Under the pieces are notes generated by a model. That model saw only the letters and a list, made by a program, of their open reading frames with translations. It made no database searches and was not told the DNA's origin. This document shows, piece by piece, positions 1-18,737 of a stretch of DNA of 20,000 nucleotides; within the stretch, counting starts at the first letter, position 1, and each line of letters starts with the position of its first letter. The DNA comes from an uncultured virus (IMG/VR IMGVR_UViG_3300029889_000001) (taxonomy: Duplodnaviria; Heunggongvirae; Uroviricota; Caudoviricetes), in IMG/VR virus record IMGVR_UViG_3300029889_000001, positions 53,459-73,458 of that record; one strand, 5' to 3'. The position numbers were made by a program, and so were the translations under genes.

Positions 1-2
1 AA

Positions 3-1745
3 GGGACGAATATCCTCACCAAGCTCCTGCATTTCGTCAATGACTACCAACCTGATTCCTGCGGCGATAGATACAGCGCACTGGAAAGCCGCCTTGAAGA
101 TATGTTCCTCCGCGCCTGAGATTTCCTTGACCGGGCCAACGTATCCGCGTGCGGTTTTAACCTCAAAGCGAAGGTCTTCCGACAAAGAGGATTCGTACCC
201 AAAGGCGCTCATAACCTCACAGAGCTTCGATTCAAAACCACCGATATATTCCTCAATCAAGGTTTTCTTCACGCCGTCTTTGTCGAAATACTTGACTAGG
301 GAATCCAGCGTTGCCGCTTTCTTTTGCAGCTTCGTCAACTGCTCTGTCAGTCGTGTCCTTTCCGCCGCTCTCTCCTCAGCCGCAATGACAGGACGTAGCT
401 GCTCGTTAACCTTATCTTCCTCAGCCTGTAGGGTAGCCAGAGGGTCGTTGAACGGGAGCGTGGCGTTGACTGCCTCTGGTAGTGCCTCCAGTTCGGCCTT
501 GGTTGCCTTACCCGCCTTGACCGTCTCTGTCAAAGACGCTTCAAGTGTGATCTTTTCCTTGACCGCCGCTTCATGCTTTCTGAGTGATTCCTTTGCTGCT
601 CCGATGTCTCCTATCGCCTCGATCTGTTTGTCTACATATTGAATCTCTCGATCTGAATCGGCAACCTCTTTTTGAAGATCGCTAATCATGGCTTCTAGTT
701 TGGTAGCGTCTATGTCCTGTTCGCACATAGGGCACTTGGCTTGATCGCCTAATAATCCTTTGAGTTTTTCTATCTGCTCATTGGATACTTGGATACCACC
801 AAGCCAACTAGCGTGATTTTTGTTGAGTTCGGCTAATTCTTGAGCCTTTGCAGCGGTCGCAGTAAATCCTTTTACCTGTTCCGCGCTGAGGATTTCCGTC
901 TCTAGCTGCTCTAGTCTCGCCTTTCCCTTACCTAGCTCCGCTCTCAGACCCTCGATCTTGGTCTGTAATTTGCCGCGCTTGACCTCGATATTGTTAGCCG
1001 TTGCAACCGCTGTATCCCGCTCCAGTTGCAGGTTGTGGCGCTTTGCTTTAATCTCAGTCAACTTGGTTTGGAGAGATTCTGAGTCTACTCCTCTCGGCGT
1101 AGGTAAGGCGTCAGGAATTACGAAGTCCTTTACCTGTCGATTGGTCGTTTCACGCTCCTTGTGGAGCAACTTATACGCACCTGTAATCACAGTGAAAGGC
1201 TCTGCGTCGAAGTCAACCTTTCCTTCGCCTAACATCTCCTCCACGGCATCCGTCTTGTCCTTTGGAAAGTCGTAGTGCGGCGGAAGAACCAGCTTGGCTA
1301 ATAGGTCTGTCTGAGCCTTTTCATCTAGACGTGAGAAGTAGTCTGTCGCCGTGGCAATCAACATCGCTGCTTTCCTGTCGGCAAGGAAGTTCTTGAATCC
1401 ATTCACAATTTTGCTATTATCGGGATCATCCAAGCACTCAGTATTCACGGTGCGACCGCTCGAATTAGTATTGAGCGTTACAATATTTCGCAACAGATGT
1501 GTGCCCTGAATCTCCGCTGTGATTATTGCCTTGCTCTCGCCTTGCCGAATCTTCTTTTGGAATCCTTTACCATCACTGGAAAGGGATACAGTTGTCTGCG
1601 CAAGATTCATCGACAAAGCTTCCGCGAAACTCGTCTTGCCGCTCATGTTCTTACCGCGAAGGATTACGAAAGAGGCGTCTCCGCAGTCGAGCGTGGAGTT
1701 TTCATGAATCCTATAGTCCTTGAGTGTCAGTTTCTTCAGACGCAT
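3..1745 (-). CDS. Rad50/SbcC-like SMC-family ATPase (3' end runs off the window)
   Basis: Absent from the ORF track; translated by hand from ATG 1745: MRLKKLTLKDYRIHEN...Walker A GKNMSGKTS, coiled coil, zinc hook CPMC (723-734), coiled coil, signature ISGAE, Walker B LVVIDE. Frame stays open to the left edge (581 codons). Confidence 0.9.
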   Translation of the reverse strand, partial: MRLKKLTLKDYRIHENSTLDCGDASFVILRGKNMSGKTSFAEALSMNLAQTTVSLSSDGKGFQKKIRQGESKAIITAEIQGTHLLRNIVTLNTNSSGRTVNTECLDDPDNSKIVNGFKNFLADRKAAMLIATATDYFSRLDEKAQTDLLAKLVLPPHYDFPKDKTDAVEEMLGEGKVDFDAEPFTVITGAYKLLHKERETTNRQVKDFVIPDALPTPRGVDSESLQTKLTEIKAKRHNLQLERDTAVATANNIEVKRGKLQTKIEGLRAELGKGKARLEQLETEILSAEQVKGFTATAAKAQELAELNKNHASWLGGIQVSNEQIEKLKGLLGDQAKCPMCEQDIDATKLEAMISDLQKEVADSDREIQYVDKQIEAIGDIGAAKESLRKHEAAVKEKITLEASLTETVKAGKATKAELEALPEAVNATLPFNDPLATLQAEEDKVNEQLRPVIAAEERAAERTRLTEQLTKLQKKAATLDSLVKYFDKDGVKKTLIEEYIGGFESKLCEVMSAFGYESSLSEDLRFEVKTARGYVGPVKEISGAEEHIFKAAFQCAVSIAAGIRLVVIDEMQELGEDIRP

Positions 1746-1914
1746 CTTCTCTCTCCCATCCGCAAGTGTTACAGGTTAAAACCACGTCCATGCACGATCC
1801 GCACGGCGCACTCTTAAAGCATGTGCAGTTCTCCGATGGAGGATAGATCATCCTTCCTTCGCATCCATCTATAGGGCACGGATCGCCTTCGTCTACCTCA
1901 GAACTCATCTTCAT
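1711..1914 (-). CDS. Small Cys-rich (zinc-finger-like) hypothetical protein
   Basis: 67 aa with CPIDGC, CTC, CGSC and CNTC. Overlaps both neighbours in the same operon. Confidence 0.65.
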   Translation of the reverse strand: MKMSSEVDEGDPCPIDGCEGRMIYPPSENCTCFKSAPCGSCMDVVLTCNTCGWEREDASEETDTQGL

Positions 1915-3283
1915 CTCCCCATCCTTCCCCTTCGCTGTCCTCTTCCTGCTCCTCGTCAGGAACCGCGTCCAAAGGCTTGCTCACCTTGAGCGTTGCCTTC
2001 GTTACCTTGTCTGCGGTGTCCTGACAGGCTTGGTCAAGAAACGCCCTCTTTTTTGTTCCCAAATAGCTATTGAGCTTGGTTGAAGAGATAACCAGTTTTC
2101 CCATCCATGCCGTATCGCCTGTATTACCGAAAGCGTAATCTTCTACGATCAAATCCGCAATCGGCATTATCGGCCTGACTCTTCCTTCCTTACATTTTGG
2201 GCATAGTCCATTTTCAGGAACATAGTCGAATTGTTTTCCGCAGTCACACCTAGTTGCGATACTTTCTCCTGTTGTCCTGAAAAGAGGATACACGCTAGAT
2301 TCACTCTCGACGGGTCCGAAGACGTAAGCCTTCCCGTTGTAGTCTTTGAGAACTACTCTCTTTCCTGTCCCGTTAACATAATCGCGCAGCGTCTTGCTGT
2401 TGACCTTTGAAAAAGCACTGTACCAAAGCAGATAGCGGAGCCTATCAACTGGCTCTAGTTGCATTTGAGGGTTCCATTGGCTAATGGGGCACTCACGGTT
2501 GGAAAGAAGAGGGCAGTAGACACATTGAGCGCCTGAGATTGCTTCAATTTCCTTGCCGCCGTCGAAACTCACATGGATGGTTTTCTGGCGCTCTCTCGCA
2601 GCCTTCGCTTCCTCAATCAACTTAGGAACGTCTTGGCGCGTGTATTCCACCGTCCTAGTCATATTTTTGTAACGGACGAAAGTCAAACGGAATACAACAG
2701 TCTCCACCCATGTAAAGTGTTGATAAATAAAAAGCGCGTACATCTTAGCCTGCATTGTTTCGCTTGGCTCAAAAGCGCGAGCGTGTGATTTGAAGTCATC
2801 CACTAGAATCTTGTTTTCTGTGCGGAAGACGTACACGCCGTCAAGTGTTCCCTGATAGCATGGAGGCAACCCACTGTCTCCGCTTATCCCTTCTACCTCC
2901 GTTGCCACATCGGTAGGCTGAAAATGCTCATCAAGAGCCATGCCTAGTTCTGTAGCAAATAAATGTTCGTGGTCAACTACAAATCCATCGCGGAGTCCTG
3001 ATAGAATCCTAGCCGCTTGTGGCCCTGCGCCATGACTGAAAGATTCAAAGGCATCCAAGTCCATCCCTACCGATTTACGGGCGCAGTGGGAGAGATAAAG
3101 CGCCATTGTCTTGTGGATTTCAGTTCCACGCGCCGCCTCAAGTCCTCCCGGTGGTTTATTTCCTTTAATGAATACTTCCGTATAGAAACGAGGACAGGCC
3201 ATCGTTTCCTGAGTGGACTGCCTGAGTGGTGGGATAGGACTCTTCTGAATTTGAACCAACTCGGTAGATTTTCTCTTAGGCAT
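1898..3283 (-). CDS. PD-(D/E)xK exonuclease, Cas4/RecB/AddB-like, with extra C-terminal Zn ribbon and acidic tail
   Basis: N-terminal CPR, then RGTEIH, GTLD, DFKS, QAKMYA (QxxxY), and C-terminal CVYCP-x6-C (1+3 Cys Fe-S staple pattern). Additional CDC...CPKC motif. Confidence 0.88.
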   Translation of the reverse strand: MPKRKSTELVQIQKSPIPPLRQSTQETMACPRFYTEVFIKGNKPPGGLEAARGTEIHKTMALYLSHCARKSVGMDLDAFESFSHGAGPQAARILSGLRDGFVVDHEHLFATELGMALDEHFQPTDVATEVEGISGDSGLPPCYQGTLDGVYVFRTENKILVDDFKSHARAFEPSETMQAKMYALFIYQHFTWVETVVFRLTFVRYKNMTRTVEYTRQDVPKLIEEAKAARERQKTIHVSFDGGKEIEAISGAQCVYCPLLSNRECPISQWNPQMQLEPVDRLRYLLWYSAFSKVNSKTLRDYVNGTGKRVVLKDYNGKAYVFGPVESESSVYPLFRTTGESIATRCDCGKQFDYVPENGLCPKCKEGRVRPIMPIADLIVEDYAFGNTGDTAWMGKLVISSTKLNSYLGTKKRAFLDQACQDTADKVTKATLKVSKPLDAVPDEEQEEDSEGEGWGDEDEF

Positions 3284-3833
3284 TCAGTCCTTTCTGTGTG
3301 CAGTCAAAAACCATTAACCTGTCGATGTAACTCTTTGCCGCGTCGTATCCGTGAGCATGAATTACATGGTCGTACTGCGTTGTCTCGTATCCCGGCCACG
3401 CTTCTTCCTTCGGAAAGATTTCAGATGCATCAGCTTTTATTTCGGAATCCGTCCACTCAAGATGGATGACACTCTTTCTCCATCCAATCTTAATCCTTCC
3501 CTTCGGAGTTGCCACGATAAACCAAGGGTAAAAAGCGCAGCATCCACGACTACAATAGCCGTTAGGAATCTCTTCCATATATAGAGCGTGACGACCAAAA
3601 CATTCAAGAATCTTCGCCTTGTCGCAAGCGGCTTTCTCGTGCGTCTTTGGGTTGGCTCCTGTCTCTCCCTTCAGGAGAGCGTCGTCAATCGAATCTCGCG
3701 CTCTATCAATCGCAAACTTTTCATCTTCGGTAAACTCCCGCTCTATGCCTTGTATCTGAATACGAATCGCATAGCCGCCCATGTGCTGCACACTAGTTAC
3801 GTTTTTGAATTCCTGCTCGACTGCTATAGTCAC
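3276..3833 (-). CDS. Hypothetical phage protein
   Basis: 185-aa ORF, coupled to neighbours (GTGA overlap at 3830-3833). Contains YCSRGCC and IKIGWRKSVI. Confidence 0.75.
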   Translation of the reverse strand: MTIAVEQEFKNVTSVQHMGGYAIRIQIQGIEREFTEDEKFAIDRARDSIDDALLKGETGANPKTHEKAACDKAKILECFGRHALYMEEIPNGYCSRGCCAFYPWFIVATPKGRIKIGWRKSVIHLEWTDSEIKADASEIFPKEEAWPGYETTQYDHVIHAHGYDAAKSYIDRLMVFDCTQKGLNA

Positions 3834-4045
3834 GCAACCCTCCTAATCTTCTTTATCTCGCCCCATGAAATCGTAGCCAGTCTCCGGTCCTTGTGCGACA
3901 CGGAAAACGCATCCACACGCTCACGTATGTTTCCATAGGTGCGTGACGTGCAGAGCAATTCCTCTCCAGCCCATAGGCTCTTGAGCGCAAGAGTTAGTAT
4001 ATCCTTCGGCTTACGAAATGTACGCCGCTTCTTTACGAATACCAT
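3830..4045 (-). CDS. Small basic hypothetical protein
   Basis: 71 aa, strong SD (AGGAGG) upstream of ATG 4045. Confidence 0.7.
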   Translation of the reverse strand: MVFVKKRRTFRKPKDILTLALKSLWAGEELLCTSRTYGNIRERVDAFSVSHKDRRLATISWGEIKKIRRVA

Positions 4046-4056
4046 GCTGGTACCTC

Positions 4057-4248
4057 CTAAAATAGTCCTAATCTGGCAAACTCACGTCGGGTAAATTCCG
4101 CCGTCTTCGGGTCCAACTTCGCCATCAACTTGTGACGGTTGTTCGATTGCTCTATCTTTTCGTTAAGGATACGTGCCTCACCTATCCTTCTCAAGTCTTC
4201 AACCGTTTTGATGGCACCGCTCTTGCCTTTATTCTTTCCTCTCTTCAT
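4057..4248 (-). CDS. Small basic hypothetical protein
   Basis: 63 aa. ATGA overlap with the PurA-like stop; GGAGG SD inside the upstream gene. Confidence 0.65.
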   Translation of the reverse strand: MKRGKNKGKSGAIKTVEDLRRIGEARILNEKIEQSNNRHKLMAKLDPKTAEFTRREFARLGLF

Positions 4249-5366
4249 GCCGTTACCTCCATATTGATTGTCCTGTGCGCCGCTGTCGGGCCTCTCCCTT
4301 GCATAACAACAGGAGCGAGTTCACTGACCCGATCAATAAACACTCGTTCCTGCCATCCTAAGCGGGGTAGGTAGTCGAGATGACTCAAAGCCAATACATC
4401 CACCCCGCCAACAATGCTTAGTGCTTGTTTAGCCAAAGTGAAGTCAAAGCGTCCTACGCGGAACTTACCTTGGAATCCGTCGTTTCCATTGTGCGGCTCA
4501 GGAAGATCAAGAGTGTTATCTTCGGTCGGAAATGGTCCTACTCCGTGACGAGTGTAGTACGTTCTCAGGCATCCAATCCTCATTCTGTCCGTACAACCGA
4601 TCTCGTCAAGCAGCGTATCGGCGTTCTCAAAGGTAGTGTTCGTCCATGTGTTGTGCGGAGCAGTACCGTGCTTTTCGTCCAGCATTACTCCCTGCGCTCC
4701 CTCGAAAACCATGCACCTCGATTCGCCAATGATTGAACTGTCCTCCGGTACTAAACGAACAAATGCCTTCCAGCGATCATACCCAACCTTTATATCTTCA
4801 ATATTTAGATCAGAGGTAGCCTCTACTCCCATTTCTTTTTGAACAAGGTTTTTCTGAAATTTCAATTTCTCTCGCAGGTCCACCCAATCGTAAATATCCT
4901 CCGCGCAGAGCACATTATCGCGCCCGTATTTCAATTCAAACTCTCGCGCCACCCCAACTCCCATCCCACAACTTCCATGCCGTCCCGTACCACGCGCCGT
5001 CTCTCTAAGCCGGTTGAGACGCTTGTGAAAAGGTGTAATAACAACACATCTGGCGGATATGGTCAATCTTCTCCACCAGCCAGGAGTTTTCTTGGCTAAC
5101 TCATCCGCCTCGTTCAACATGGTAATTGGATCGATAAGCATAAAACGTGATAAATGCGTCCTAACTTGATCGTTCGCCATCATTCCAGAGCCGAACTGGG
5201 AAAAGGTATGATGTACGCCTTCGGGGGTAATCACGTTATGAGCGCATTGCGATCCACCCCCATGCCGCACGATTAAGTCCACTGGAAGGCTACGGCAGAG
5301 TGCATCCACCGTAGCCCCTTTGGACTCGTCGCCGAAACCTAACCCGGCTACAGAGATTGCTCTCAC
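4245..5366 (-). CDS. purA: Divergent adenylosuccinate synthetase-family (PurA-fold) ligase
   Basis: GFGDESKG (cf. GDEGKG), GGSQCAHN (cf. GGHNAGHT), GSCGMGVG, FEGAQG-x2-LD, TRHGVGPFPTE, SHLD, GRGP. 373 aa. Family call is firm; canonical activity is doubtful. Confidence 0.9.
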   Translation of the reverse strand: MRAISVAGLGFGDESKGATVDALCRSLPVDLIVRHGGGSQCAHNVITPEGVHHTFSQFGSGMMANDQVRTHLSRFMLIDPITMLNEADELAKKTPGWWRRLTISARCVVITPFHKRLNRLRETARGTGRHGSCGMGVGVAREFELKYGRDNVLCAEDIYDWVDLREKLKFQKNLVQKEMGVEATSDLNIEDIKVGYDRWKAFVRLVPEDSSIIGESRCMVFEGAQGVMLDEKHGTAPHNTWTNTTFENADTLLDEIGCTDRMRIGCLRTYYTRHGVGPFPTEDNTLDLPEPHNGNDGFQGKFRVGRFDFTLAKQALSIVGGVDVLALSHLDYLPRLGWQERVFIDRVSELAPVVMQGRGPTAAHRTINMEVTA

Positions 5367-6307
5367 AGCCTTGCCGCCTTCCCCGCTCCAGACGTAGCCA
5401 GTGAGTCAGTGGTAACATGCTTCATTGACTTGACTAGAGCCTTGGCTTCGCTATCTCCTACGCCGATAGCCACAAGGTCAGTGACCACCGACGCCGGAGT
5501 TGCCTTGGACTCATACAGGCCAATAGTCGAAGCAATCAACTCGCAAAGCAGATTTGGATGCTGGCTGGTTAGCACAGATTCCTCGCCAAACAGTCTGACG
5601 TACTGCTCACGAGCATGACGGTATCCACCATCCGGCCAGATCACGAAGATATTGAAGTTCCTGCGGGCCTCTTCGATGATCTCCGCGATAGGAATATCTT
5701 TTTCGATGGTATCGCCGAAGATCGCCTTCACTTCCTTCGCTTGAACATGGGTGAAGATTGGCTCATCGGCATACAGGAACATATAGCCCTTTTTCCCACG
5801 TTTCTCGACAGAATCAAGCACCATCTTCCGCGCTGCCGCGTAGAGCAGCAGATCGTAAGACTCACCATCATTGCCGCCTCCAAGACAGACCAGATAGATG
5901 TTGCGAATGTGATCGTCTACGCGGTTGTCACTCTCGAAGTCTGAAAGCTGAACACAGTTGGACCCCGCATAGTTGTAGTCATCATTCGCCGCAACCGCAA
6001 CTTGCGGATCAGTCAGGTACTTGTTGAGCAGTTCCATCAGGTTAGGCAAACGCTTCTGCGCGTCCACTGCTCGCTCATAGTTCGAGCCTGTCACGTCAAA
6101 GCAAACTAGTACAGGGTTGGATTGTGGATGCTCTGTCGAGTCACGCGCTTCGAGTTTTCCGAAAGGCTTGCTATTGATCCTCAGCGGGTCAAGGTTCGTG
6201 TGAACTGACGTTGCTGTTTTGGTATAGGCAAAATCGGCTACGCCGGTTGCCTTACGAGTGGTTGCTGACGAATGATATGCACCGCTATCCCAGGCTCCCC
6301 CGCCCAT
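5363..6307 (-). CDS. von Willebrand factor A (vWA) domain protein
   Basis: MIDAS-like DVTGS after a hydrophobic strand (VLVCF), GGGNDGESY, FLYADE. N-terminus MGGGAW. SD AAGGAG; GTGA-coupled to the PurA-like gene. Confidence 0.85.
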   Translation of the reverse strand: MGGGAWDSGAYHSSATTRKATGVADFAYTKTATSVHTNLDPLRINSKPFGKLEARDSTEHPQSNPVLVCFDVTGSNYERAVDAQKRLPNLMELLNKYLTDPQVAVAANDDYNYAGSNCVQLSDFESDNRVDDHIRNIYLVCLGGGNDGESYDLLLYAAARKMVLDSVEKRGKKGYMFLYADEPIFTHVQAKEVKAIFGDTIEKDIPIAEIIEEARRNFNIFVIWPDGGYRHAREQYVRLFGEESVLTSQHPNLLCELIASTIGLYESKATPASVVTDLVAIGVGDSEAKALVKSMKHVTTDSLATSGAGKAARL

Positions 6308-6324
6308 CGTTTGTCTCCTTTTCT

Positions 6325-7374
6325 TTACGGCAAGTTAAATTCAACCCACTTAGGGGAGCCGTACCCCTTAGCAGCAGCTTGCTTCCAATCCTCAAGAACA
6401 TCACCGGCTTTCTGGTAACGCTTATCTGGATTTTCATCAAGACACTTCGATAGAACTTTTCCTAACTCCGGCAGCCACAAGGTTCCGCACAGATATGTCA
6501 TTAACCGCGCTGCCATGTAGATGTCGGATGGTGGCCCAATGTACTTCTTTGAAAGCAATTCTGGAGCATAGTGATCTTGCCACGCAGGAACCCACGAAGA
6601 AAGTCTCGTCCTCTGGGTATAGTCAACACTATAGCACCAATCCACGAGCCTGATCGAATGTTTTCTTGAGTCTTTTGTTATCGTGTTTCCGTCATTGTCT
6701 GGATAAAATAAAACGTGAGGCGGAAGGATGGCTCCATGAATGATCTTGAAATGATGAACCCAGGTAAGAAGAGTTAGGATTCTCTTAAACATCCACACTC
6801 CAGTCTTCTTCTCTACTGTGTTGTCTCCAAACTTTGCATGAACTTCCTGAGCCGTCACGAACCCAGGGAAGCGAGTAATAACATTCGCCTCTCGCTTCCA
6901 CAGTCCCTCTACCCAAAAGTTGCCTACCAACTCAGGAACACCGTCTCGGACAGGACCATCAATCTTTGCCAGAATCTTGAGCGCATTGACTTCTGCGCGT
7001 AGAAGATCATTGTCGTCGTGAGAGCGAGCAACCTTTACCAGAATCTTTCCGCCTTCAACCGTGTAAAGGTCTGCTATGTCTCCTATATGCGGATGAGGCT
7101 TGGCTTTGTACTTGCCGATCTCCAGAGGGACACAGTGAGGTAAAGGTACTCTCTTGCCCCATATTCCTTTCCTCACTCTCTCATCGGCTATTTGCTTGAG
7201 TTCGTTGAGTTTTTGAAAAGCCTTCTTTGCGATAGGCTCCGTAGGATTGTGATCTGGATGGCAAGCACGAGCAAGTTTACGAAAGACTATTGCTGGATCG
7301 TCGCCAGAACCAAACACATCCTCTGGGCAGCAGGCTCCGTCTAGCTTGTCGTAGATGAGTTGTAGTTCGCTCAC
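6325..7374 (-). CDS. J-domain-like (HPD) N-terminus fused to an atypical Ser/Thr-kinase fold (probable pseudokinase)
   Basis: FRKLARACHPDHN...AFQKL J-like segment. Kinase landmarks LVKVA, alphaC E, IIHGAILPPHV (HRD position = HGA), LVDWC (DFG position), YAPE, SDIY, CLDENPDKR. Confidence 0.85.
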   Translation of the reverse strand: MSELQLIYDKLDGACCPEDVFGSGDDPAIVFRKLARACHPDHNPTEPIAKKAFQKLNELKQIADERVRKGIWGKRVPLPHCVPLEIGKYKAKPHPHIGDIADLYTVEGGKILVKVARSHDDNDLLRAEVNALKILAKIDGPVRDGVPELVGNFWVEGLWKREANVITRFPGFVTAQEVHAKFGDNTVEKKTGVWMFKRILTLLTWVHHFKIIHGAILPPHVLFYPDNDGNTITKDSRKHSIRLVDWCYSVDYTQRTRLSSWVPAWQDHYAPELLSKKYIGPPSDIYMAARLMTYLCGTLWLPELGKVLSKCLDENPDKRYQKAGDVLEDWKQAAAKGYGSPKWVEFNLP

Positions 7375-7673
7375 TCAGAAGTCTCCGTTCCCTCTACCTT
7401 CGGTTCCTCAATCAAAGGCTCAATCATGTCGAGTCCTACCAGAATAGCCTTGAGCGTGGCACGAAGACTCTCAACCTCACTCTTACGTTGGTTATTGCGG
7501 TGAATCTGATCGAAGGCTTTGACGATATTGAAGGTCGTTCCGGTTTGAATCTTACGGTCGCTTGAGTAGTACCCTTGCTGTGAACCTACTGTTCGACCTG
7601 CTAGGTAGTCAATCTCTCGAAAAGTCGCCTCAACGAGAAAATTCCCGTCTCCTATAGTTCCGATGATTTTCAT
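7371..7673 (-). CDS. Hypothetical protein, first gene of the kinase-vWA-PurA unit
   Basis: 100 aa, SD GGGAGAGGG, GTGA-coupled to the kinase gene. Confidence 0.7.
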   Translation of the reverse strand: MKIIGTIGDGNFLVEATFREIDYLAGRTVGSQQGYYSSDRKIQTGTTFNIVKAFDQIHRNNQRKSEVESLRATLKAILVGLDMIEPLIEEPKVEGTETSE

Positions 7674-7796
7674 TGTCCCTCTCCCAATGTGTTGATGCGC
7701 GGCGCTCGGATGCTGAGACTTCGCCCGGACGCGACCCGATGTGCCTTAGAGGGACACGCCGCGCACTCTCGACAACTCCCCTAGCTGCCGAAAGGT
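7674..7796 (-). ncRNA. Putative structured cis-regulatory RNA (three-way junction with anti-RBS pairing)
   Basis: Perfect 9-bp stems 7757-7765/7696-7704 and 7748-7756/7674-7682, the latter covering the RBS. Inner hairpin UCGGGU(C)GC...GCAUCCGA. GC-rich intergenic spacer in an otherwise gap-free arm. Confidence 0.5.
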
Positions 7797-8978
7797 CTAA
7801 AATTCCAAGTTCAACGTCTTCGGTCGCCCTGGTTCCGCTTGCTGTGCCGGTTTCTCGTCCTGCGCGGGCTTGGTTTCTTGTGTTTCCTGTTGCGGCTCAG
7901 GCTTCTCCTCTGGCGCTGAGTCGATCTTCTTTGGCCGTCCACGACCGCGCTTCACTTCCGTTTCCTGCGGCGTCTCGGTCTTTGCTTGCTCAGTCTTGAC
8001 CTCTGCTTGCGATGCTTGCTGTGTTGCTTGCTCCGCTGGCTTCTCAGTTGCCTTCGTTTCCGTCTTGGCTACTGTCTGTCCTGTCGGCGCTAGGCGTCCA
8101 CGTAGGTACTCAAGCAACTCCTTCGCCCGTCCCATGTATGAGTTCTTGAGAAGACGCTTCTCTGTCTCGTTCTTGCCGAGTTGAGTAAACAGAGATTCAA
8201 TCTCCTTGTCAAATGGAGAACCGAATACCTCTTCAATCGTCCTGACGCCCTTCTTAATCTCCTCACAGAGAGCTTTCAGGGTGACAAGGTGGTCGATCTC
8301 CAGTTCCTTTGGCGAAGTGACTCCTACCGCGTTCATGATCTGCCACTCGCTCACGCCCAGCTTCGTCAGGTACTCCATAGCCGCGTCGATGCGCTGTGAA
8401 TGGCTTACAGCTTGTCCTACGGCGGTCAGCTTCGCTTGTTGGTAGGCTGGGTCCCAAAGAGCCATCGGAACGCCGCCTTTGAGAACTGCATCGCGGTAAG
8501 CAATGCTCAACGCAGCCTTTCCGGTCGTTAGGATCATATCGGCATTGAACTTCCGGCCTTCTTTGTCTGTGATCCGGCGAGGAACCTCTTTGGCGTTCTT
8601 GTTATTAAACTCGTAGTCAAGAAACACGCCTTGCGCGGTAATAGTGTCGTCTGTGCTTCCAAAAATCCTTGTTGCTGTGGACGTGTTTCTCCATGTTGGA
8701 GCCACAATCTCAGCAAAGCGAACTCCTGGTCCGACAATCTGCTTTCCTGCGCGGGGAAGCGTATAAAACATGCTCAGTGCAACAGGCTGAGAATGGGTTG
8801 CGTAGGACATGAGTTGCTTTTGAAAAGTGGTAATGTTTCTCCTGTTCGCTGGAAGGTTTGCTGTGGCAACCATGGCCGCATATTCCGACTGTGTGATAAT
8901 CGCTAATGTCGAAGGAGATGAGTCAATAATCTCCAAATTTGATTCATTCTCTGGTGGAAGGTATTCCTCGTTCGCCAT
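7797..8978 (-). CDS. Putative phage recombination / single-strand-annealing protein with low-complexity C-terminal tail
   Basis: Start at ATG 8978 with SD AAGGAG (not 9014). FYTLPR...IVGPGVRFAE...WRN core resembles proteins I recall next to phage Cas4-like exonucleases. Q/E/K/P/T-rich tail with AT-hook-like KRGRGRPKK. Function inferred from context. Confidence 0.55.
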   Translation of the reverse strand: MANEEYLPPENESNLEIIDSSPSTLAIITQSEYAAMVATANLPANRRNITTFQKQLMSYATHSQPVALSMFYTLPRAGKQIVGPGVRFAEIVAPTWRNTSTATRIFGSTDDTITAQGVFLDYEFNNKNAKEVPRRITDKEGRKFNADMILTTGKAALSIAYRDAVLKGGVPMALWDPAYQQAKLTAVGQAVSHSQRIDAAMEYLTKLGVSEWQIMNAVGVTSPKELEIDHLVTLKALCEEIKKGVRTIEEVFGSPFDKEIESLFTQLGKNETEKRLLKNSYMGRAKELLEYLRGRLAPTGQTVAKTETKATEKPAEQATQQASQAEVKTEQAKTETPQETEVKRGRGRPKKIDSAPEEKPEPQQETQETKPAQDEKPAQQAEPGRPKTLNLEF

Positions 8979-9023
8979 GCTGCTCCTTTTCCGGTTCTCC
9001 CGGTGTGGTTTCAAAATGTTCCA

Positions 9024-9293
9024 CTACTCCTGCTCTAATTGCCTTAATTTCTCACTTGCGGCCCATCCTCTTGGATTGCCGGGTTTGTCTTCCCGAATAG
9101 TCGATGGACCGCCTAAAGGCATATCAATAATCGCCGTTCTCGTACACCGCTTTCTCCCAAAATATAGGTAAACGGCTACGCTTGCGTCATCATCCATCCC
9201 CATAGGCCCAAAGATTTTGAAATCCCAAGGTGCTCTGTCAAACTGCTTCATCAGATTGGGATGTTGGAACCTCAAGTGATCTAATAGTGTCAT
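9024..9293 (-). CDS. Hypothetical protein
   Basis: 89-aa ORF in the co-oriented array; purine-rich SD upstream. Confidence 0.55.
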   Translation of the reverse strand: MTLLDHLRFQHPNLMKQFDRAPWDFKIFGPMGMDDDASVAVYLYFGRKRCTRTAIIDMPLGGPSTIREDKPGNPRGWAASEKLRQLEQE

Positions 9294-9609
9294 TCTCTTT
9301 CTCTCCCGTCGTTTCCTGTTCCTTGGCTGCTGGTACGGTCCCTTCCCTAGTCAGCGGCGGCTTTAATTCCAAAGTCGATTCCCGATTTGCCACGGTTGTG
9401 TCAGGCGTCATCAGGTTGCTCACCGTCTGCATCATGTGTCCTATCCCGCATAAATGCTTTCCCTCTTTCATTGCCTTTTGAGGACACTCATCCCAGTGGT
9501 ACACATGAACGCCAGAGGATTCAGGAAGGACTACATACCAATTATTTACCTCTCGGCGCTGGGCTGTGCAACCGGGGAAATCACACGTAGGTGCTGATCC
9601 TAATCCCAT
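9238..9609 (-). CDS. Hypothetical Zn-binding protein
   Basis: CDFPGC...NNW...HLCGIGH pattern; SD GAGG. Confidence 0.7.
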   Translation of the reverse strand: MGLGSAPTCDFPGCTAQRREVNNWYVVLPESSGVHVYHWDECPQKAMKEGKHLCGIGHMMQTVSNLMTPDTTVANRESTLELKPPLTREGTVPAAKEQETTGEKENDTIRSLEVPTSQSDEAV

Positions 9610-9613
9610 GCAG

Positions 9614-9919
9614 TTATTTTACCTCTCCTCGCGCTTTAGCCAACGCTTTTATTGCCATGGCTACGCCGCAAGGATTTCCAAGGTTATGCGCTTGACAGTT
9701 TCCATGGTGATCGTACTGGCATGGTTCGTCGTCAATTAACTGCTCAAGAGCAACGTACATATCCGGTCCTGCGGCGATAAGGTGAGCGTTGGCTTCATCG
9801 TTGCCTTGAGATGTGATAGCGATAAAATGGAACCTCTCGCCAGCGACAGATATTTCCCATTGGCAACCGTTGTGATCTTTTGCCACCCACGGCCCTTGTG
9901 TGAACTTAGGTTCGCTCAT
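9614..9919 (-). CDS. Conserved phage hypothetical protein (TPGPW...ANAxLIAAAP type)
   Basis: FTQGPW, ANAHLIAAGPDM, ALAKARGE. Start at ATG 9919 by ATGA coupling. Confidence 0.8.
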   Translation of the reverse strand: MSEPKFTQGPWVAKDHNGCQWEISVAGERFHFIAITSQGNDEANAHLIAAGPDMYVALEQLIDDEPCQYDHHGNCQAHNLGNPCGVAMAIKALAKARGEVK

Positions 9920-10254
9920 GCCGTCACCGCCTCCCAAAATCCCTCACCGTAGACCACAGCGCCGTTCACTGAATGGAATACCAGCATATCCCCGCCGTCG
10001 CAGACTTTCACTTCGAGTCCTTTGGCTATATAAGCATCAGAACGCCGTTTAGCTTCGGACAGTGTGATTTCCTCGTCAGGATATTTCATCGGTCCTTTGC
10101 GAAACCACATGCCTCCGCTGTGATAACCGTCACGTTGGTAACAGTAGATTTTCCACGGTCCTTCACCGATCTCCGCGTACTGGAGTTCGGTAAGCGTGTG
10201 AACTTCCGCTAATCCTGCCGCCTCTTGGCTCTTTGCCCACTCTCCGAAATTCAT
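9916..10254 (-). CDS. Hypothetical protein
   Basis: ATG 10254 preceded by GGAGG; ~112 aa. Confidence 0.7.
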   Translation of the reverse strand: MNFGEWAKSQEAAGLAEVHTLTELQYAEIGEGPWKIYCYQRDGYHSGGMWFRKGPMKYPDEEITLSEAKRRSDAYIAKGLEVKVCDGGDMLVFHSVNGAVVYGEGFWEAVTA

Positions 10255-10268
10255 GCCGTCAACCTCCG

Positions 10269-10712
10269 TCACCACGAAATCGTGAATACCTGTTTGCCTT
10301 TGTTTGCTTCCAAGAACGGGAGTACGTCTTTTTCCGCTGCTACGCCGTAATGCTCATGCTCCTTTGCTGCTGCATAAATCGCACGAACCTTGTCCAGAAA
10401 ATCATCGTCGATGACTGGCAAATCCTCACCGATTAGTTCGTTGATTTTCCCTACTACGTCAGGAATAAATGATTCATTGTCTCCTGTTAGTTTTGCCTTG
10501 AGCCAGCTAACCTCTCCTACCCAAACGTTAGGAGTATCAGTGATGCGTTGATGGACAGACCCCGGACCAAACTGTTCCTCGTAAGTCCTTTTTCCACGAG
10601 GTATCAGTCCAAACCCAGCAAACCACTTTGACCCTATGACATTGGAATTGAAGTCTGCTAGATCGGCTTCCGTGATTCCCTCGTAGATGTGAATATGTAA
10701 ATCAGCGGCCAT
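10269..10712 (-). CDS. Hypothetical phage protein
   Basis: 147 aa, SD GGAGG; MAADLHIH...VWVGEVSWLKA...FTISW. Confidence 0.8.
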   Translation of the reverse strand: MAADLHIHIYEGITEADLADFNSNVIGSKWFAGFGLIPRGKRTYEEQFGPGSVHQRITDTPNVWVGEVSWLKAKLTGDNESFIPDVVGKINELIGEDLPVIDDDFLDKVRAIYAAAKEHEHYGVAAEKDVLPFLEANKGKQVFTISW

Positions 10713-11034
10713 CGGTCAACCTCCGTCTCAGTTCTGCCCACTCAGCAGGCGTAAGGCGGTCAAGAGGATGGCTGTTAGGTTCCATCCACTCAAGAATGTC
10801 GTGGATTGCTTTGGCATCCTTATAATCCTGCCGCTCCTCAAATTTCGCCCGCAGAACACGATCTTGCTCTCGTTTCGCCCGCTTCGCCTTTTCTTCTGTG
10901 ATCTCAACCTTGGTTGCCGGACGCGGCGGCTGGCTGAATCCTGTGCGTGGACGCGGCTCTGTGCTTAATTGAGTGACCCGCATTACAGACCCACTCCACT
11001 CCCGCTCATAAGTAAGCCATTCTTCCTTTGGCAT
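10702..11034 (-). CDS. Hypothetical protein
   Basis: 110 aa, purine-rich SD (GGGGAG...GAGG). Confidence 0.7.
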   Translation of the reverse strand: MPKEEWLTYEREWSGSVMRVTQLSTEPRPRTGFSQPPRPATKVEITEEKAKRAKREQDRVLRAKFEERQDYKDAKAIHDILEWMEPNSHPLDRLTPAEWAELRRRLTDGR

Positions 11035-11052
11035 CCTCGTTCTCCCCTACTA

Positions 11053-11223
11053 TTACCCCAGCGCGATTTTCTCGCTAAACGGCACTTCTTCCGGCTGCGC
11101 GATAGGAGCTACCACTTCGATCATCTCTCCTACCGCATTAGGGTTTCCGTCAAACCACAGCCACACCTCATCCGCCTGCTCCGGCGTCAGGCCCGATAGA
11201 AACGCTTTCAGGTATTCTGGCAT
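11053..11223 (-). CDS. Small acidic hypothetical protein, first gene of the leftward arm
   Basis: ATG 11223 preceded by GGGAGGGAG. The longer ORF-track start (11283) lies upstream of the predicted promoter. Confidence 0.65.
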   Translation of the reverse strand: MPEYLKAFLSGLTPEQADEVWLWFDGNPNAVGEMIEVVAPIAQPEEVPFSEKIALG

Positions 11224-11250
11224 TTCTCTCCCTCCCGGTCGATTGTGATT

Positions 11251-11279
11251 ACGGTATACCCTGTTTCCGCCTTTGTCAA
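11251..11279 (-). promoter_or_regulatory. Leftward sigma70-type promoter
   Basis: TTGACA (11279-11274), 17-bp spacer, TACCGT (11256-11251), then SD and ATG 11223. Confidence 0.75.
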
Positions 11280-11439
11280 GCATGGAATTGAATTATTTTT
11301 ATCATCCTTTGTTTTCTATGGTTTGCGAAAATCAATTACACCTACAAAAACGATATTCCTAGCGGCGCTTACAGAACGCATAAAGGCGCAGGAATATGAA
11401 AGCAAAAGACTTGTGAGAAATTTTGCGCAAAAAAAGTTC

Positions 11440-11468
11440 TTGACAAACCGCAGAGGATTCGATAGGGT
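11440..11468 (+). promoter_or_regulatory. Rightward sigma70-type promoter
   Basis: TTGACA (11440-11445), 17-bp spacer, TAGGGT (11463-11468); A-tract upstream. Confidence 0.7.
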
Positions 11469-11473
11469 GGTGA

Positions 11474-11640
11474 TGTCCGGGGTAGCTCCCTTGGATGCCC
11501 TCTATCCGAACAGGTCTGGGGGCCGGTTGCCCAGACTGGCCCCAACCACCTTCAAGATAGAACGGCGCTGTTCGGATACCTTTTCAACGGCTGCGGAATT
11601 TTGGCTATGAGGATTTCCCTGTCATTAGGGAAAAGGGGGA
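11474..11640 (+). ncRNA. Putative structured 5' leader / small RNA upstream of the replication initiator
   Basis: 5' hairpin 11474-11497. Perfect 11-bp stem 11503-11513/11568-11578 enclosing two mutually exclusive hairpins. Hairpin 11614-11620/11627-11633 next to the SD. Confidence 0.5.
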
Positions 11641-11645
11641 ATATT

Positions 11646-12440
11646 TTGTCCGCAAAATGGCAACAATGGATGCCGCTCCATATTGACCGCTTCTTAGGTA
11701 GTCCTGCTGTTCAAGCCATGTCTCCATCCGCCCAGATGGGATACCTTCGCCTTTTGATGGCTTCATGGCAAAGCGAAGATTGTACGATTTCTTCCGATCC
11801 TCTCGATTTAGCAGAAACTAGCGGACTTGGCGATGATCTTTGGGAAAAATGCGGCGCTCGTATTTTGCGTAAATTTTTTCCTGTAAGCGGCAATGGAAGA
11901 TTGCGGAATAGCGTCTGCTATGAAGAATGGAGAGAAGCAAAAAGAATATTTGAAGCAAGAAAGGCTGCGGCAATAAAAACCACAGAAATACGGTCACCGC
12001 GTTTATTTTCTACAGTCACCGAAGACAATCAAGACGGTGACCATACGGTGACTAATGGCACACCGTCACGCTCTGCCAACACAATAACAGGTACATTAAC
12101 AAATACAAAAAAACAAACAGCATCTACAGGCGAAGAAATTGATGCTCTTTATAAAGCCTACCCCCGTCACACCGCTCCAAAAGCAGCGCGTAAGGCAATC
12201 GAAAAGGCATTAAAAGAAAAACCTTTTGATGTACTCCTTCCCATCGTACAGGCTTACGCTGCTCAGACGGCAAAGAGAATTGCTGATGGAAAACTAGAAA
12301 AGGAATTTATTCCTCACCCGGCTACTTGGTTTAATCAAGGGCGATACGAAGATGACGATTTGAAGCCGCCGCCGCAATACGACATTGTGGAAGTTTCGCC
12401 ACAGGAGTTCTGGAAAGACACAGGGATTCATGTCTCTTAG
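11646..12440 (+). CDS. Phage replication initiator / replisome organizer (DUF1376/YdaU-like N-terminus)
   Basis: WMPLHIDRFLGS...MS...GYLRLLMASW N-domain, low-complexity linker, C-domain LYKAYPR...KAARKA...FIPHPATWFNQGRYED. Probable TTG start 11646 after AGGGGGA. Confidence 0.85.
   Translation: MSAKWQQWMPLHIDRFLGSPAVQAMSPSAQMGYLRLLMASWQSEDCTISSDPLDLAETSGLGDDLWEKCGARILRKFFPVSGNGRLRNSVCYEEWREAKRIFEARKAAAIKTTEIRSPRLFSTVTEDNQDGDHTVTNGTPSRSANTITGTLTNTKKQTASTGEEIDALYKAYPRHTAPKAARKAIEKALKEKPFDVLLPIVQAYAAQTAKRIADGKLEKEFIPHPATWFNQGRYEDDDLKPPPQYDIVEVSPQEFWKDTGIHVS
11989..12120. repeat. Candidate replication origin: iteron-like GTCACCG repeats plus A-rich tract inside the initiator gene
   Basis: GTCACCG at 11993 and 12015; inverted CGGTGAC at 12035 and 12046; A-rich segment ~12078-12120. 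Confidence 0.65.
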
Positions 12441-16629: not shown

Positions 16630-17016
16630 ATGAAGCGTGGCGGCTACATCAAGCGTAAACCACCTAAGCCTCCTGTTGAGAGGATACCTCTAGCAATTCC
16701 GAGGCCATGTGAAGTGAAAAAAGAGATTGAAGTTGAGCATACCTTCCGAGATGGGAGAACGAAAATCAATCAGAATTGCAAGGAAGGCCGTGATCTTTAC
16801 CAGCAGCGTAAGCGCATCGCATGGGAAAAACAAGGGAAACTGTGCTCTATTTGCCACCTTCACTTAAACTGGGCAGACTCTACAGTAGACCATATCCGAG
16901 TCCGTGGCATGGGAGCCGGGTCTATAGACGACCGCCAGGAAAACATTGCGGCTGCACACGCCACTTGCAACGCTGCTCGTGGAAGTAGAACTCACGGATT
17001 TTATGGGGTTGCATGA
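16630..17016 (+). CDS. HNH endonuclease
   Basis: CSIC...TVDHI...ENIAAAHATCNAARG. Start ATG 16630 just after the upstream stop; ATGA-coupled to the MTase. Confidence 0.85.
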   Translation: MKRGGYIKRKPPKPPVERIPLAIPRPCEVKKEIEVEHTFRDGRTKINQNCKEGRDLYQQRKRIAWEKQGKLCSICHLHLNWADSTVDHIRVRGMGAGSIDDRQENIAAAHATCNAARGSRTHGFYGVA

Positions 17017-18737
17017 GATACCTTTCGGTTTGCTCAGGATTAGGTGGTGCGGAGTTAGCATTTACTTCTCTAGGATGGGAGTGTGCGGCTGTATGCGAAA
17101 TAGATTCCTCTGCTTGCGCTGTGCTTAAAGCAAGATTTCCAGACGTACCTAACTTGGGAGATTTTACAAAGATCGGAGTTGAAGATGTCGGAACAATCGA
17201 CCTTTTGGTCGGAGGAACACCTTGTCAAGATTTCTCAGTCGCCGGTCTCAGAGCAGGAATGGACGGAGATCGTGGTCAACTCACAATCGAGTTCGCTAGG
17301 GTTGCTGAGAGACTCAGGCCCAGATGGTTGGTCTGGGAGAACGTTCCCGGTGTGCTGTCGGTTGACGGAGGACGAGCGTTTGGAACCTTTCTCCGAATCT
17401 TGGGGCAATTCGGGTATGGGTTCGCTTACAGAATTCTTGACGCTCAATACTGCGGAGTTCCACAGCGAAGGCGTAGGGTCTTCGTTGTCGGATATCTTGG
17501 AGACTGGCGTCGTGCCGCAGCGGTACTATTTGAGCGCCAAAGCCTGTCAGGGTATCCTGCGCCGCGCAGAGAAGCGGGGAAAGGCGTTGCCGGATGCCTT
17601 AAAGGTGGCTCTGGAGAGCGTGGCTGGCCCGATCCCTCTGATGGAAACGGAGGAGGACTCATTGAAGTCGCTGGAACTCTGGGAGGAGGAAGCGGAGAAC
17701 GAGGATGGCAGAACCATGACGGAGCAGGGGCATTTGTTCCTGTAGGCCCAACTGGAAGCGGTAAGGATACATTTCCGTGTCTCTGTGCAAACTACGGAGA
17801 TAAGTGGGGGTTAGGCGATCAGGAAGCATTCAAAGGGGATCATCACATACTAACATCCAAGCCTATTTATGCAACCGATGGACAGGTTAACGCTGCTTTT
17901 GCGGAAGATCAAGCCTTGGCTCTTAACGCCACACATGAGCAACCGTATATAGTCGGCACTATGGCTTGCAATACAGGACCAAACGGGCACGACGCAGGGA
18001 ACTTCCAAAGTAATCAAGGGGTAGACTCTGGATATGTTATTCCAGTCGCCTTCACTCAAAACTCAAGAGATGAAGTTAGAGTAATAGGCGATGAAGGAGA
18101 GGTTTCAGGATCGCTCTCAGCGGAAACAGGAACACATCAGACCACTTATCTTGCCTATCGTACAAATGCGGCTGGACAGGTTGATCCTCAAGGAGATAAA
18201 TCCGATGCACTGACATCAAATACCGATCCTTGCACACAAATCCTTGCCTTTGACACGACACAAGTAACCAGCAAAACAAACCGTTCCAATCCGCAAGTAG
18301 GCGATCCATGTCATACACTCGCCAAAGGTTCGGATGCGCCAACGATTGCGTTTAGGACGAATCAAACATCTGCTCAAGGTCCAATTCATTCCGAAGAAGT
18401 AACGGATAGTTTGGCGCAAGATCATCCTCCCGCTGTTGCCTTTGCGTTACAGGGTGGGGGGAAGACTTCACAGAATTCGCAAGGAAGTACAATCAAAGAA
18501 GACTGCTCATTTACCTTAAACGTAACTGATGTGCATGGCATATCCACTGGGATGCAAGTACGCCGTCTTACTCCTACAGAGTGTGAGCGGTTACAAGGCA
18601 TACCTGACGGTTGGACAAAGATTACGGAGAAGTCATCAGATGGACCGCGATACCGAATGATCGGAAACGGCTTCGCTGTTCCTTGCGTGGCGTGGATAGG
18701 AAAAAGGATTCAAATGGTAGAGGATATGCTCAAATGA
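17013..18737 (+). CDS. dcm: DNA (cytosine-5)-methyltransferase with greatly expanded variable region
   Basis: Motif I CSGLGG, II CEID, IV GGTPCQDFS, VI ENVPG, VIII QRRRRVF, IX RRLTPTECERLQG, X IGNGFAVP. Confidence 0.95.
   Translation: MRYLSVCSGLGGAELAFTSLGWECAAVCEIDSSACAVLKARFPDVPNLGDFTKIGVEDVGTIDLLVGGTPCQDFSVAGLRAGMDGDRGQLTIEFARVAERLRPRWLVWENVPGVLSVDGGRAFGTFLRILGQFGYGFAYRILDAQYCGVPQRRRRVFVVGYLGDWRRAAAVLFERQSLSGYPAPRREAGKGVAGCLKGGSGERGWPDPSDGNGGGLIEVAGTLGGGSGERGWQNHDGAGAFVPVGPTGSGKDTFPCLCANYGDKWGLGDQEAFKGDHHILTSKPIYATDGQVNAAFAEDQALALNATHEQPYIVGTMACNTGPNGHDAGNFQSNQGVDSGYVIPVAFTQNSRDEVRVIGDEGEVSGSLSAETGTHQTTYLAYRTNAAGQVDPQGDKSDALTSNTDPCTQILAFDTTQVTSKTNRSNPQVGDPCHTLAKGSDAPTIAFRTNQTSAQGPIHSEEVTDSLAQDHPPAVAFALQGGGKTSQNSQGSTIKEDCSFTLNVTDVHGISTGMQVRRLTPTECERLQGIPDGWTKITEKSSDGPRYRMIGNGFAVPCVAWIGKRIQMVEDMLK
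17185..17745 (+). CDS. Nested +1-frame gene inside the C5-MTase (M.EcoHK31I beta-polypeptide-like)
   Basis: 186-codon same-strand ORF with its own GGAG SD 6 nt before ATG 17185. Contains SLSDILE...PQRYYLSAKACQGILRRAEKRGKALP. Confidence 0.65.
   Translation: MSEQSTFWSEEHLVKISQSPVSEQEWTEIVVNSQSSSLGLLRDSGPDGWSGRTFPVCCRLTEDERLEPFSESWGNSGMGSLTEFLTLNTAEFHSEGVGSSLSDILETGVVPQRYYLSAKACQGILRRAEKRGKALPDALKVALESVAGPIPLMETEEDSLKSLELWEEEAENEDGRTMTEQGHLFL

Follow-up and report, generated by a model that had tools for sequence, protein, structure and literature searches.

A phage gene for a J-domain protein with a kinase fold that has no catalytic base is linked to genes for a vWA-fold protein and a PurA-like ligase

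Results

The window analyzed here is a stretch of 20,000 nucleotides from an uncultured member of the Caudoviricetes (IMG/VR record IMGVR_UViG_3300029889_000001, positions 53,459 to 73,458); it comprises the final 20 kb of a 73,458-bp virus record that is estimated to be 72% complete. On its minus strand, the window carries three neighboring genes to which we refer as the trio. The gene at 6325..7374 has a GTG start codon and codes for a protein of 349 residues, here referred to as J-kinase, in which a J-domain is fused to a protein kinase fold with an altered catalytic loop. It is followed by the genes for a vWA-fold protein of 314 residues (5363..6307; PHROG 2971) and a PurA-like ligase of 373 residues (4245..5366; PHROG 1211). 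The trio is part of a leftward array that runs from small open reading frames (ORFs) through the gene for a 405-residue protein, a 100-residue ORF, the trio and further small ORFs to the genes for SbcD- and SbcC-like nucleases. The stop codon of the 100-residue ORF overlaps the GTG start of the J-kinase gene by four nucleotides (7371-7374), as do the vWA and PurA-like genes with each other (5363-5366), and these overlaps suggest translational coupling within the array. A gene identical to the J-kinase gene is present on a 136-kb complete viral contig (L002).

The J-domain core spans residues 17-70 (7165..7326, minus strand) and consists of helix II, the HPD loop and a long helix III; these residues (7326-7165) translate as PEDVFG...FRKLARACHPDHNP...AFQKLNELK. 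In a preliminary description made from the sequence alone, an HPD tripeptide was placed at 7260-7252, a fusion of a J-domain to a kinase fold was proposed, and an N-terminus that does not fold as a J-domain was named as the observation that would speak against it. The codons at 7252..7260 do give H39-P40-D41, and profile matches, matches to solved structures and an AlphaFold2 model all bear out the fusion. The Pfam DnaJ profile (PF00226) matches at 27.7 bits (E 3e-6; gathering cut-off 27.8) and covers profile positions 21-52 of 63. A family profile made from 59 homologues with 34-87% identity matches solved J-domains at E 2.8e-6 and weaker, and the first 80 residues as a lone query gave 26 matches in the PDB, all 26 to J-domain proteins (best E 1.4e-4). 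The AlphaFold2 model, which was built from the 59-sequence alignment (mean predicted local distance difference test score (pLDDT) 95.7; predicted template modeling score 0.87), has predicted N-terminal helices at residues 3-13, 18-21, 27-38 and 47-69 with the HPD loop between the last two, and the N-terminus is thus modeled as a J-domain; helix III (47-69) continues into the linker, and a separate helix IV is not resolved. HPD is present in 56 of the 59 homologues, the other three being gapped at this position. Judged by profiles and model, the assignment is more than a chance occurrence of an HPD tripeptide. There is no HSP70 gene in the record of this phage; a DnaK partner would, therefore, be that of the host.

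Residues ~84-340 (6355..7125, minus strand) form a Hanks-type protein kinase fold, as seen in structural matches to PknB (1MRU) and in Foldseek searches. When the model was compared exhaustively with 48,161 solved chains using VIA-align, PknB of M. tuberculosis (1MRU) ranked first (Z 23.6, root-mean-square deviation 2.5, 223 aligned residues, model residues 83-338), the pseudokinase STK40 (5L2Q) ranked second (Z 22.8, root-mean-square deviation 2.4, 223 aligned residues, 19% identity), and 323 chains scored at Z of at least 8; the bilobal eukaryotic protein kinase fold is present. Based on this ranking, the fold is an ordinary Hanks-type core rather than an APH, RIO or SelO-like variant. In Foldseek, the best match is to the DNAJB1-PKA chimera 4WB7, in which a J-domain precedes a kinase (E 6.4e-11); PknB, PKR and Aurora A follow at E ~1e-10, and GAK kinase domains are also among the matches. 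At the level of sequence, J-kinase matches PHROG 3043, which is labelled "kinase" (E 1.7e-31), and the family profile matches StkP at E 3.8e-10. PADLOC returned PD-T4-6 (8e-6) and MkoA (1.7e-4) for J-kinase, which we dismissed as weak generic kinase similarity, and no match for the vWA or PurA-like partner genes.

To describe the family, we used four sets of sequences. A profile search over 1.84 billion representatives of clusters at 50% identity gave 1331 cluster representatives at E<=1e-30, and residue counts out of 150 refer to the best 150 of these. The cellular set (n=80) consists of the window protein and 79 ORFs from cellular genomes, with one locus (L123) dropped because its ORF has no stop codon; the viral set consists of the ORFs from 42 viral loci (n=42), and the fourth set is that of the 59 homologues.

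Alignment of the 59-homologue profile to StkP sets HGAilPpH against HRDLKPQN and DWC against DFG, and this alignment argues that the substitutions in the loop are real in an otherwise alignable kinase. In J-kinase, the catalytic loop reads HGAILPPH (residues 213-220; 6715..6738) in place of HRDxKxxN; the catalytic Asp is replaced by A215, the Lys by L217 and the Asn by H220. The β3 Lys K114 (7033..7035; 59/59, 150/150 and 78/80), the αC Glu E128 (6991..6993; 59/59, 150/150 and 79/80), the metal-binding Asp D245 of the DWC motif (6634..6642; Asp in 56/59, 137/150 and 68/80) and the A270-P271-E272 (APE) motif are all in place. In these respects, too, the preliminary description has held up, since it had reported an intact β3 Lys, αC Glu, DWC Asp and APE around precisely this loop, which we confirmed by translation and by the StkP alignment. 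The glycine-rich loop reads H-I-G98-D-I-A-D-L-Y, does not conform to GxGxxG and has G98 as its sole conserved Gly. The Pfam Pkinase profile (PF00069) matches at 23.0 bits, under its gathering cut-off of 31.7.

The altered loop is a property of the whole family. Among the 59 homologues, H213, G214, P218, H220, K114 and E128 are invariant and A215 is present in 58, the exception being Gly. The third residue of the loop is Ala in all 80 sequences of the cellular set, in 40 of the 42 viral ORFs (Cys and Ser in one each) and in 142 of the best 150 (Gly 4, Ser 2, Asn 1, His 1). Asp at the position of the catalytic base is, thus, found in 0/150, 0/80 and 0/42 sequences. It had been pointed out beforehand that homologues mostly carrying HRD or HGD would make J-kinase a decayed copy; the counts show the opposite. 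Among the best 150, K114, E128, H213, W194 and H239 are each present in 150/150, R319 in 149/150, D284 in 147/150 and G98 in 144/150, while at position 220 there are 135 sequences with His and 15 with Asn. Such conservation of core residues (K114, E128, H213, W194, H239, D284 and R319) is expected of a folded protein under selection. The loop of gp251 of the mycobacteriophage Colt, which is annotated as "serine/threonine kinase", reads HGAITPDN, and HPD is present in this protein.

Two elements of the protein vary. HPD is found in 31 of the 42 viral ORFs and in 66 of the 80 sequences of the cellular set. The J-domain is absent or altered in the 11 remaining viral ORFs (YPD in L011, HAD in L028 and no J-like segment in nine) and in 14/80 of the cellular set, and in 17 of the best 150 the tripeptide is HED, with a middle Glu; these HED versions may no longer be able to activate DnaK. 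J-less proteins of Myxococcota and Planctomycetota have a CxxC...CxxC segment in place of the J-domain, while those of the jumbo phages L033, L037 and L038 start 20 residues ahead of the kinase core. Among the 65 ORFs scanned in J-less viral loci, none codes for an AAA+ protein or another chaperone that could substitute for the J-domain. The other variable element is the metal-binding D245, which is replaced by Gly in 12/80 of the cellular set, in 12 of the best 150 and in the viral proteins of L032 and L041. Thus, the constant element of the family is the kinase-fold core with its HGAxxPxH loop, and the J-domain is a frequent accessory. We also observed that the CxxC...CxxC start is zinc-ribbon-like in L109, L111, L115, L116 and L118-L122, and that the DFG-position Asp is Gly in these proteins.

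Linkage of the three genes was analyzed by tblastn with the window proteins in 42 viral and 80 cellular loci. The trio is found together in 37/42 viral loci; of the exceptions, three (L008, L013 and L040) are cut short by the end of the DNA, L034 has the kinase-like and vWA genes only and L042 the kinase-like gene only. In Colt, the three genes are adjacent (genes 251-253). The trio is also together in 73/80 cellular loci, from Micromonosporaceae, Chloroflexota, Planctomycetota, Myxococcota and candidate-phyla bacteria. There are two gene orders, usually kinase-like, vWA and PurA-like, and, in one group of jumbo phages, vWA, PurA-like and kinase-like. Because the linkage holds in many loci in which the identity of the kinase-like protein to that of the window is down to 23-30%, we consider it ancient and selected. 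No phosphatase gene and no AAA+ gene lies beside the trio in the loci scanned. For L042, we note that the kinase-like gene (7674-8678 of this locus) has no vWA or PurA-like gene within 8 kb on either side and lies between an upstream gene for a deoxyribosyltransferase-Nudix fusion and a downstream gene with a weak CinA match.

The preliminary description had spoken of a vWA/PurA-like complex, and the neighboring genes do encode a vWA-fold and a PurA-like protein. The vWA protein has no Pfam match and no sequence match in the PDB, and its identification comes from the fold search alone: Foldseek with its model (pLDDT 90.2) gives integrin beta I-like, NorD and Ku80 vWA domains at E 1e-5 to 1e-4. 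It carries a motif resembling the metal-ion-dependent adhesion site (MIDAS), D71-V-T-G-S75 (6083-6097, minus strand), in which D71, T73, G74 and S75 are invariant in 30/30 aligned sequences. As a separate observation, vWA homologues start with Met-Gly in 30/30 sequences (MGGGxW/MGSxxY type; N-terminus at 6307), and Y11 is invariant as well. Such strict conservation of an exposed N-terminal Gly is unusual, and it could be of relevance to the partner ligase or to processing.

The PurA-like protein matches PF00709 at E 4.1e-51 and structures of bacterial PurA at E 1.7e-26, with an alignment that ends near residue 336 of 432. It is without the last ~100 residues of PurA. In 109 PurA-like proteins encoded with the trio, D13 (108), K16 (108) and the equivalents of His41 (109) and Gln224 (109) are kept. 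In addition, the family has invariants of its own, C133 (107), H274 (109), W241 (104) and Q299 (109), which align to Thr129, Val273, Ser240 and Thr301 of E. coli PurA, positions at which we take PurA to bind inosine monophosphate (IMP) and aspartate. The Thr300-Thr301-Gly-Arg303-x-Arg305 stretch of PurA, presumably involved in aspartate binding, is aligned to F-Q-G-K-F-gap in the PurA-like protein. R303 is also in the invariant set of the PurA-like protein itself.

A link to nicotinamide adenine dinucleotide (NAD) metabolism was tested by Pfam searches of the ORFs that flank the trio or its kinase-like member in 13 cellular loci (105 ORFs) and in seven J-less viral loci (65 ORFs). High-GC actinobacterial and myxobacterial loci (L048, L053, L085, L100, L109, L110, L115 and L119) were left out of these scans because length-based ORF picking had chosen antisense frames in them. 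NAD-related neighbors are present in four of the 13 cellular loci, and the other nine have none. NrtR is encoded directly upstream of the trio in L106; NrtR, an isochorismatase-family (PncA-like) protein, a Nudix protein and NAPRTase around it in L046; NAMPT alongside it in L068; and the NAD-using Tpt1/KptA directly upstream of it in L073. Among the J-less viral loci, five of the seven (L033, L037, L024, L035 and L042) have such neighbors, and L029 and L034 have none. In L024, NrtR adjoins the vWA gene, and in L035 NAMPT lies upstream. In the jumbo phages L033 (2848-9985) and L037 (2937-9981), the genes for NrtR, NAMPT, the vWA protein, the PurA-like protein, the kinase-like protein and a cytidylyltransferase-family (NMNAT-like) protein follow one another in this order. 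The trio of these two phages is, as a side observation, embedded in a gene set for NAD salvage that is NARP2-like.

Elsewhere in the window, the 405-residue protein of PHROG 3657 (7797-9014, minus strand) shares its array with the genes for the SbcCD-like nucleases. Its resemblance to clusters of the single-strand-annealing proteins Sak, Rad52 and RecT is weak, with feature scores of 0.77-0.79, which are below the level to trust. By tblastn, it is found in L002 and L003 only among the other 41 viral loci and in the cellular locus L044; as its conservation is limited to the closest relatives, it does not belong to the module. Genes for replication and DNA modification occupy the rightward half of the window and code for DUF1376, primase-helicase, DUF5131, HNH endonuclease and C5-cytosine DNA methyltransferase proteins, the last of 574 residues (17013-18737, plus strand). 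In the methyltransferase gene, a stretch of 390 nucleotides (17191-17581) shares 77.8% identity with its counterpart in Caulobacter phage DMCA; this is the sole match of the window to cultured phages at the nucleotide level. A scan of positions 1-12000 for promoters and terminators gave no excess over shuffled sequences (12 versus 9.7; 14 versus 11.4).

Discussion

Based on the data reported here, we lean towards a model in which J-kinase acts as an adaptor, a pseudokinase that binds a ligand and brings DnaK to the trio. In this model, the pseudokinase core would probably still bind a nucleotide or a related ligand, as is suggested by its Lys-Glu pair (K114 and E128) and, in the protein of this phage, by D245, the metal-binding Asp. 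To judge from its residues, ordinary phosphotransfer is beyond J-kinase: the catalytic Asp, Lys and Asn are replaced, and of the glycine-rich loop only one Gly, flanked by acidic residues, is left. Instead, it would work as one subunit of a three-gene unit together with a MIDAS-type vWA protein and a re-tooled PurA-like ligase, and, as argued by the gene linkage, these two proteins are most likely what the kinase fold holds. The HPD J-domain would recruit host DnaK/Hsp70 to the trio, either for assembly or remodelling or to couple the state of the trio to the chaperone. The pathway served during infection would most likely be NAD- or ADP-ribose-linked nucleotide metabolism.

Several observations weigh against this model. 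The Pfam DnaJ score of J-kinase is slightly under the gathering cut-off, and the J-domain is dispensable: between roughly a fifth and a quarter of the relatives lack it, have another segment in its place or carry an altered form. DnaK recruitment would, therefore, be an accessory function. The NAD link was seen in only a minority of the cellular loci scanned (4/13) and in five of the seven J-less viral loci. Moreover, the 73,458-bp record of this phage (72% complete) has no match to the NAPRTase family, and four close relatives (three of them complete) as well as Colt are without the NAPRTase family and NrtR_WHD. Thus, the association with NAD genes is real in some lineages and is not seen in this phage. 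Finally, K114 and E128, which are invariant, D245, which is kept in 85-91% of relatives, and H220 (Asn in 15/150), which takes the place of the Mg-binding Asn of kinases, would equally fit an unusual active enzyme.

This last point leads to the alternative that, although we consider it rather unlikely, we take most seriously, namely that J-kinase is an active, non-canonical enzyme on a kinase scaffold that modifies the vWA protein, the PurA-like protein, DnaK or a small molecule. SelO and SidJ are precedents for unusual chemistry on a kinase scaffold. Such an enzyme would use the pocket of K114, E128, H220 and D245, perhaps together with an acidic D121-N122-D123 patch at the start of αC, and the strong conservation of K114, E128, H220 and this patch is what makes it a serious rival: conservation in the active site is above that of many scaffold pseudokinases, D123 (134/150), N122 (117/150) and G98 are conserved as well, and one partner is a nucleotide-using ligase. 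However, of over 300 sequences examined, not one has a catalytic base at the canonical position. The glycine-rich loop is both degenerate and acidic (D99 in 120/150, D102 in 89/150), and several independent lineages whose module is otherwise retained have Gly in place of the metal-binding Asp. The repeated loss of D245 in such lineages argues against a family-wide Mg-ATP-dependent transferase, and the retention of the HGAxxPxH loop where D245 is lost fits a non-catalytic role.

We hold it to be very improbable that J-kinase is a regular Ser/Thr protein kinase with which the phage takes over its host. The label "serine/threonine kinase" or "kinase" is attached to 202 phage records, all of them from cluster C mycobacteriophages, PHROG 3043 carries the same label, and the fold is closest to that of PknB, which would speak for this possibility; however, these annotations are homology labels and not tests, the Pkinase score falls short of its cut-off, all three catalytic residues are replaced in J-kinase, and the loop of its Colt homologue is altered, too (HGAITPDN). 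Because no sequence examined is fit for standard phosphotransfer, the labels on the 202 cluster C records are probably wrong. We reject, as highly improbable, a reading of the trio as a version of the Z-genome (2-aminoadenine) pathway of phages in which the PurA-like protein would serve as PurZ. PHROG 1211 does carry the label "2-aminooxy adenylosuccinate synthetase" (E 1.8e-60). However, according to an analysis of PurZ, all 147 phage sequences analyzed have Ser at the position of PurA Asp13 (PMC12884076), while the window protein reads GDESKG and, like 108 of the 109 PurA-like proteins of the module, keeps Asp13. The protein is, therefore, not PurZ, and no DatZ- or MazZ-type match turned up among the window ORFs scanned. 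As for a decaying, functionless kinase copy, which the loss of the canonical catalytic residues could indicate, we give it practically no credence: the frame is intact, there are about 1331 clusters at E<=1e-30, the altered loop is itself invariant, and synteny is kept across phyla and phages. J-kinase is, in short, not a decayed copy.

Comparison with characterized proteins helps to place the adaptor model that we favor. J-kinase shares with PknB and StkP the fold, the β3 Lys, the αC Glu, the DFG-position Asp and equivalents of the APE Glu, the αF Asp and the αH-I Arg, and it differs from them by HGAxLPxH in place of HRDLKPxN, by the single-Gly loop and by the fused N-terminal J-domain. The pseudokinase STK40 also has a kinase fold without a working catalytic loop; however, the likeness is one of fold only, the replacement in the loop is a different one, and STK40 belongs to a eukaryotic signalling context. 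The DNAJB1-PRKACA chimera and GAK, like J-kinase, combine a J-domain and a kinase fold in one polypeptide, but both are catalytically active and have no vWA or PurA-like partner; moreover, the chimera is an accidental oncogenic fusion. In full-length GAK, the J-domain is C-terminal. The coupling of a MIDAS vWA protein to a kinase fold or to a remodelling ATPase is known from the TerY-P triad (vWA, kinase and phosphatase) and from MoxR-vWA systems. The trio differs from these in that the loci scanned have no phosphatase or AAA+ gene, the kinase fold is without its catalytic base and the third member is PurA-like. A phage J-domain that engages host DnaK has a precedent in Rki of phage RB43, which, as far as the accessible portion of its description goes, is an ORFan J-protein that has no kinase fold, does not belong to a three-gene module and acts on sigma32 (PMC3486835).

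Thus, the individual domains are familiar, and proteins with a kinase and a J-domain are known in eukaryotes. What appears to be undescribed is a large family with a fixed HGAxxPxH loop that is linked to a vWA protein and a re-tooled PurA-like enzyme. Our literature search found no paper on the combination of a J-domain, a kinase fold and a PurA-like protein, or on the trio; the J-protein review by Barriot et al. 2020 may list the architecture. Similarly, the published routes by which phages reconstitute NAD (NARP1, NARP2 and NARP3) do not include the genes of the trio, in so far as term searches of the NARP1/NARP2 preprint and the NARP3 paper gave no mention of PurA, vWA or NrtR.

Going beyond the model, we speculate, and regard it as improbable, that the trio constitutes a previously unrecognised NAD/ADP-ribose-tied nucleotide pathway distinct from NARP1, NARP2 and NARP3. 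The kinase fold would be a ligand sensor that gates the complex, with host DnaK as the motor of the switch in the J-bearing versions. The PurA-like protein would retain GTP-dependent phosphoryl-activation chemistry (Asp13, Lys16, His and Gln) and apply it to a substrate other than IMP plus aspartate, for instance to regenerate NAD or adenylate from what NAD-degrading defence systems produce.

Many large phages and bacteria from no fewer than five phyla have the trio, and its presence suggests that phages bring into the cell an unstudied activity related to nucleotides or NAD. J-kinase also points to a new viral way of harnessing the host Hsp70 system. The cluster C phages of the laboratory strain M. 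smegmatis provide a tractable system in which to study the trio.

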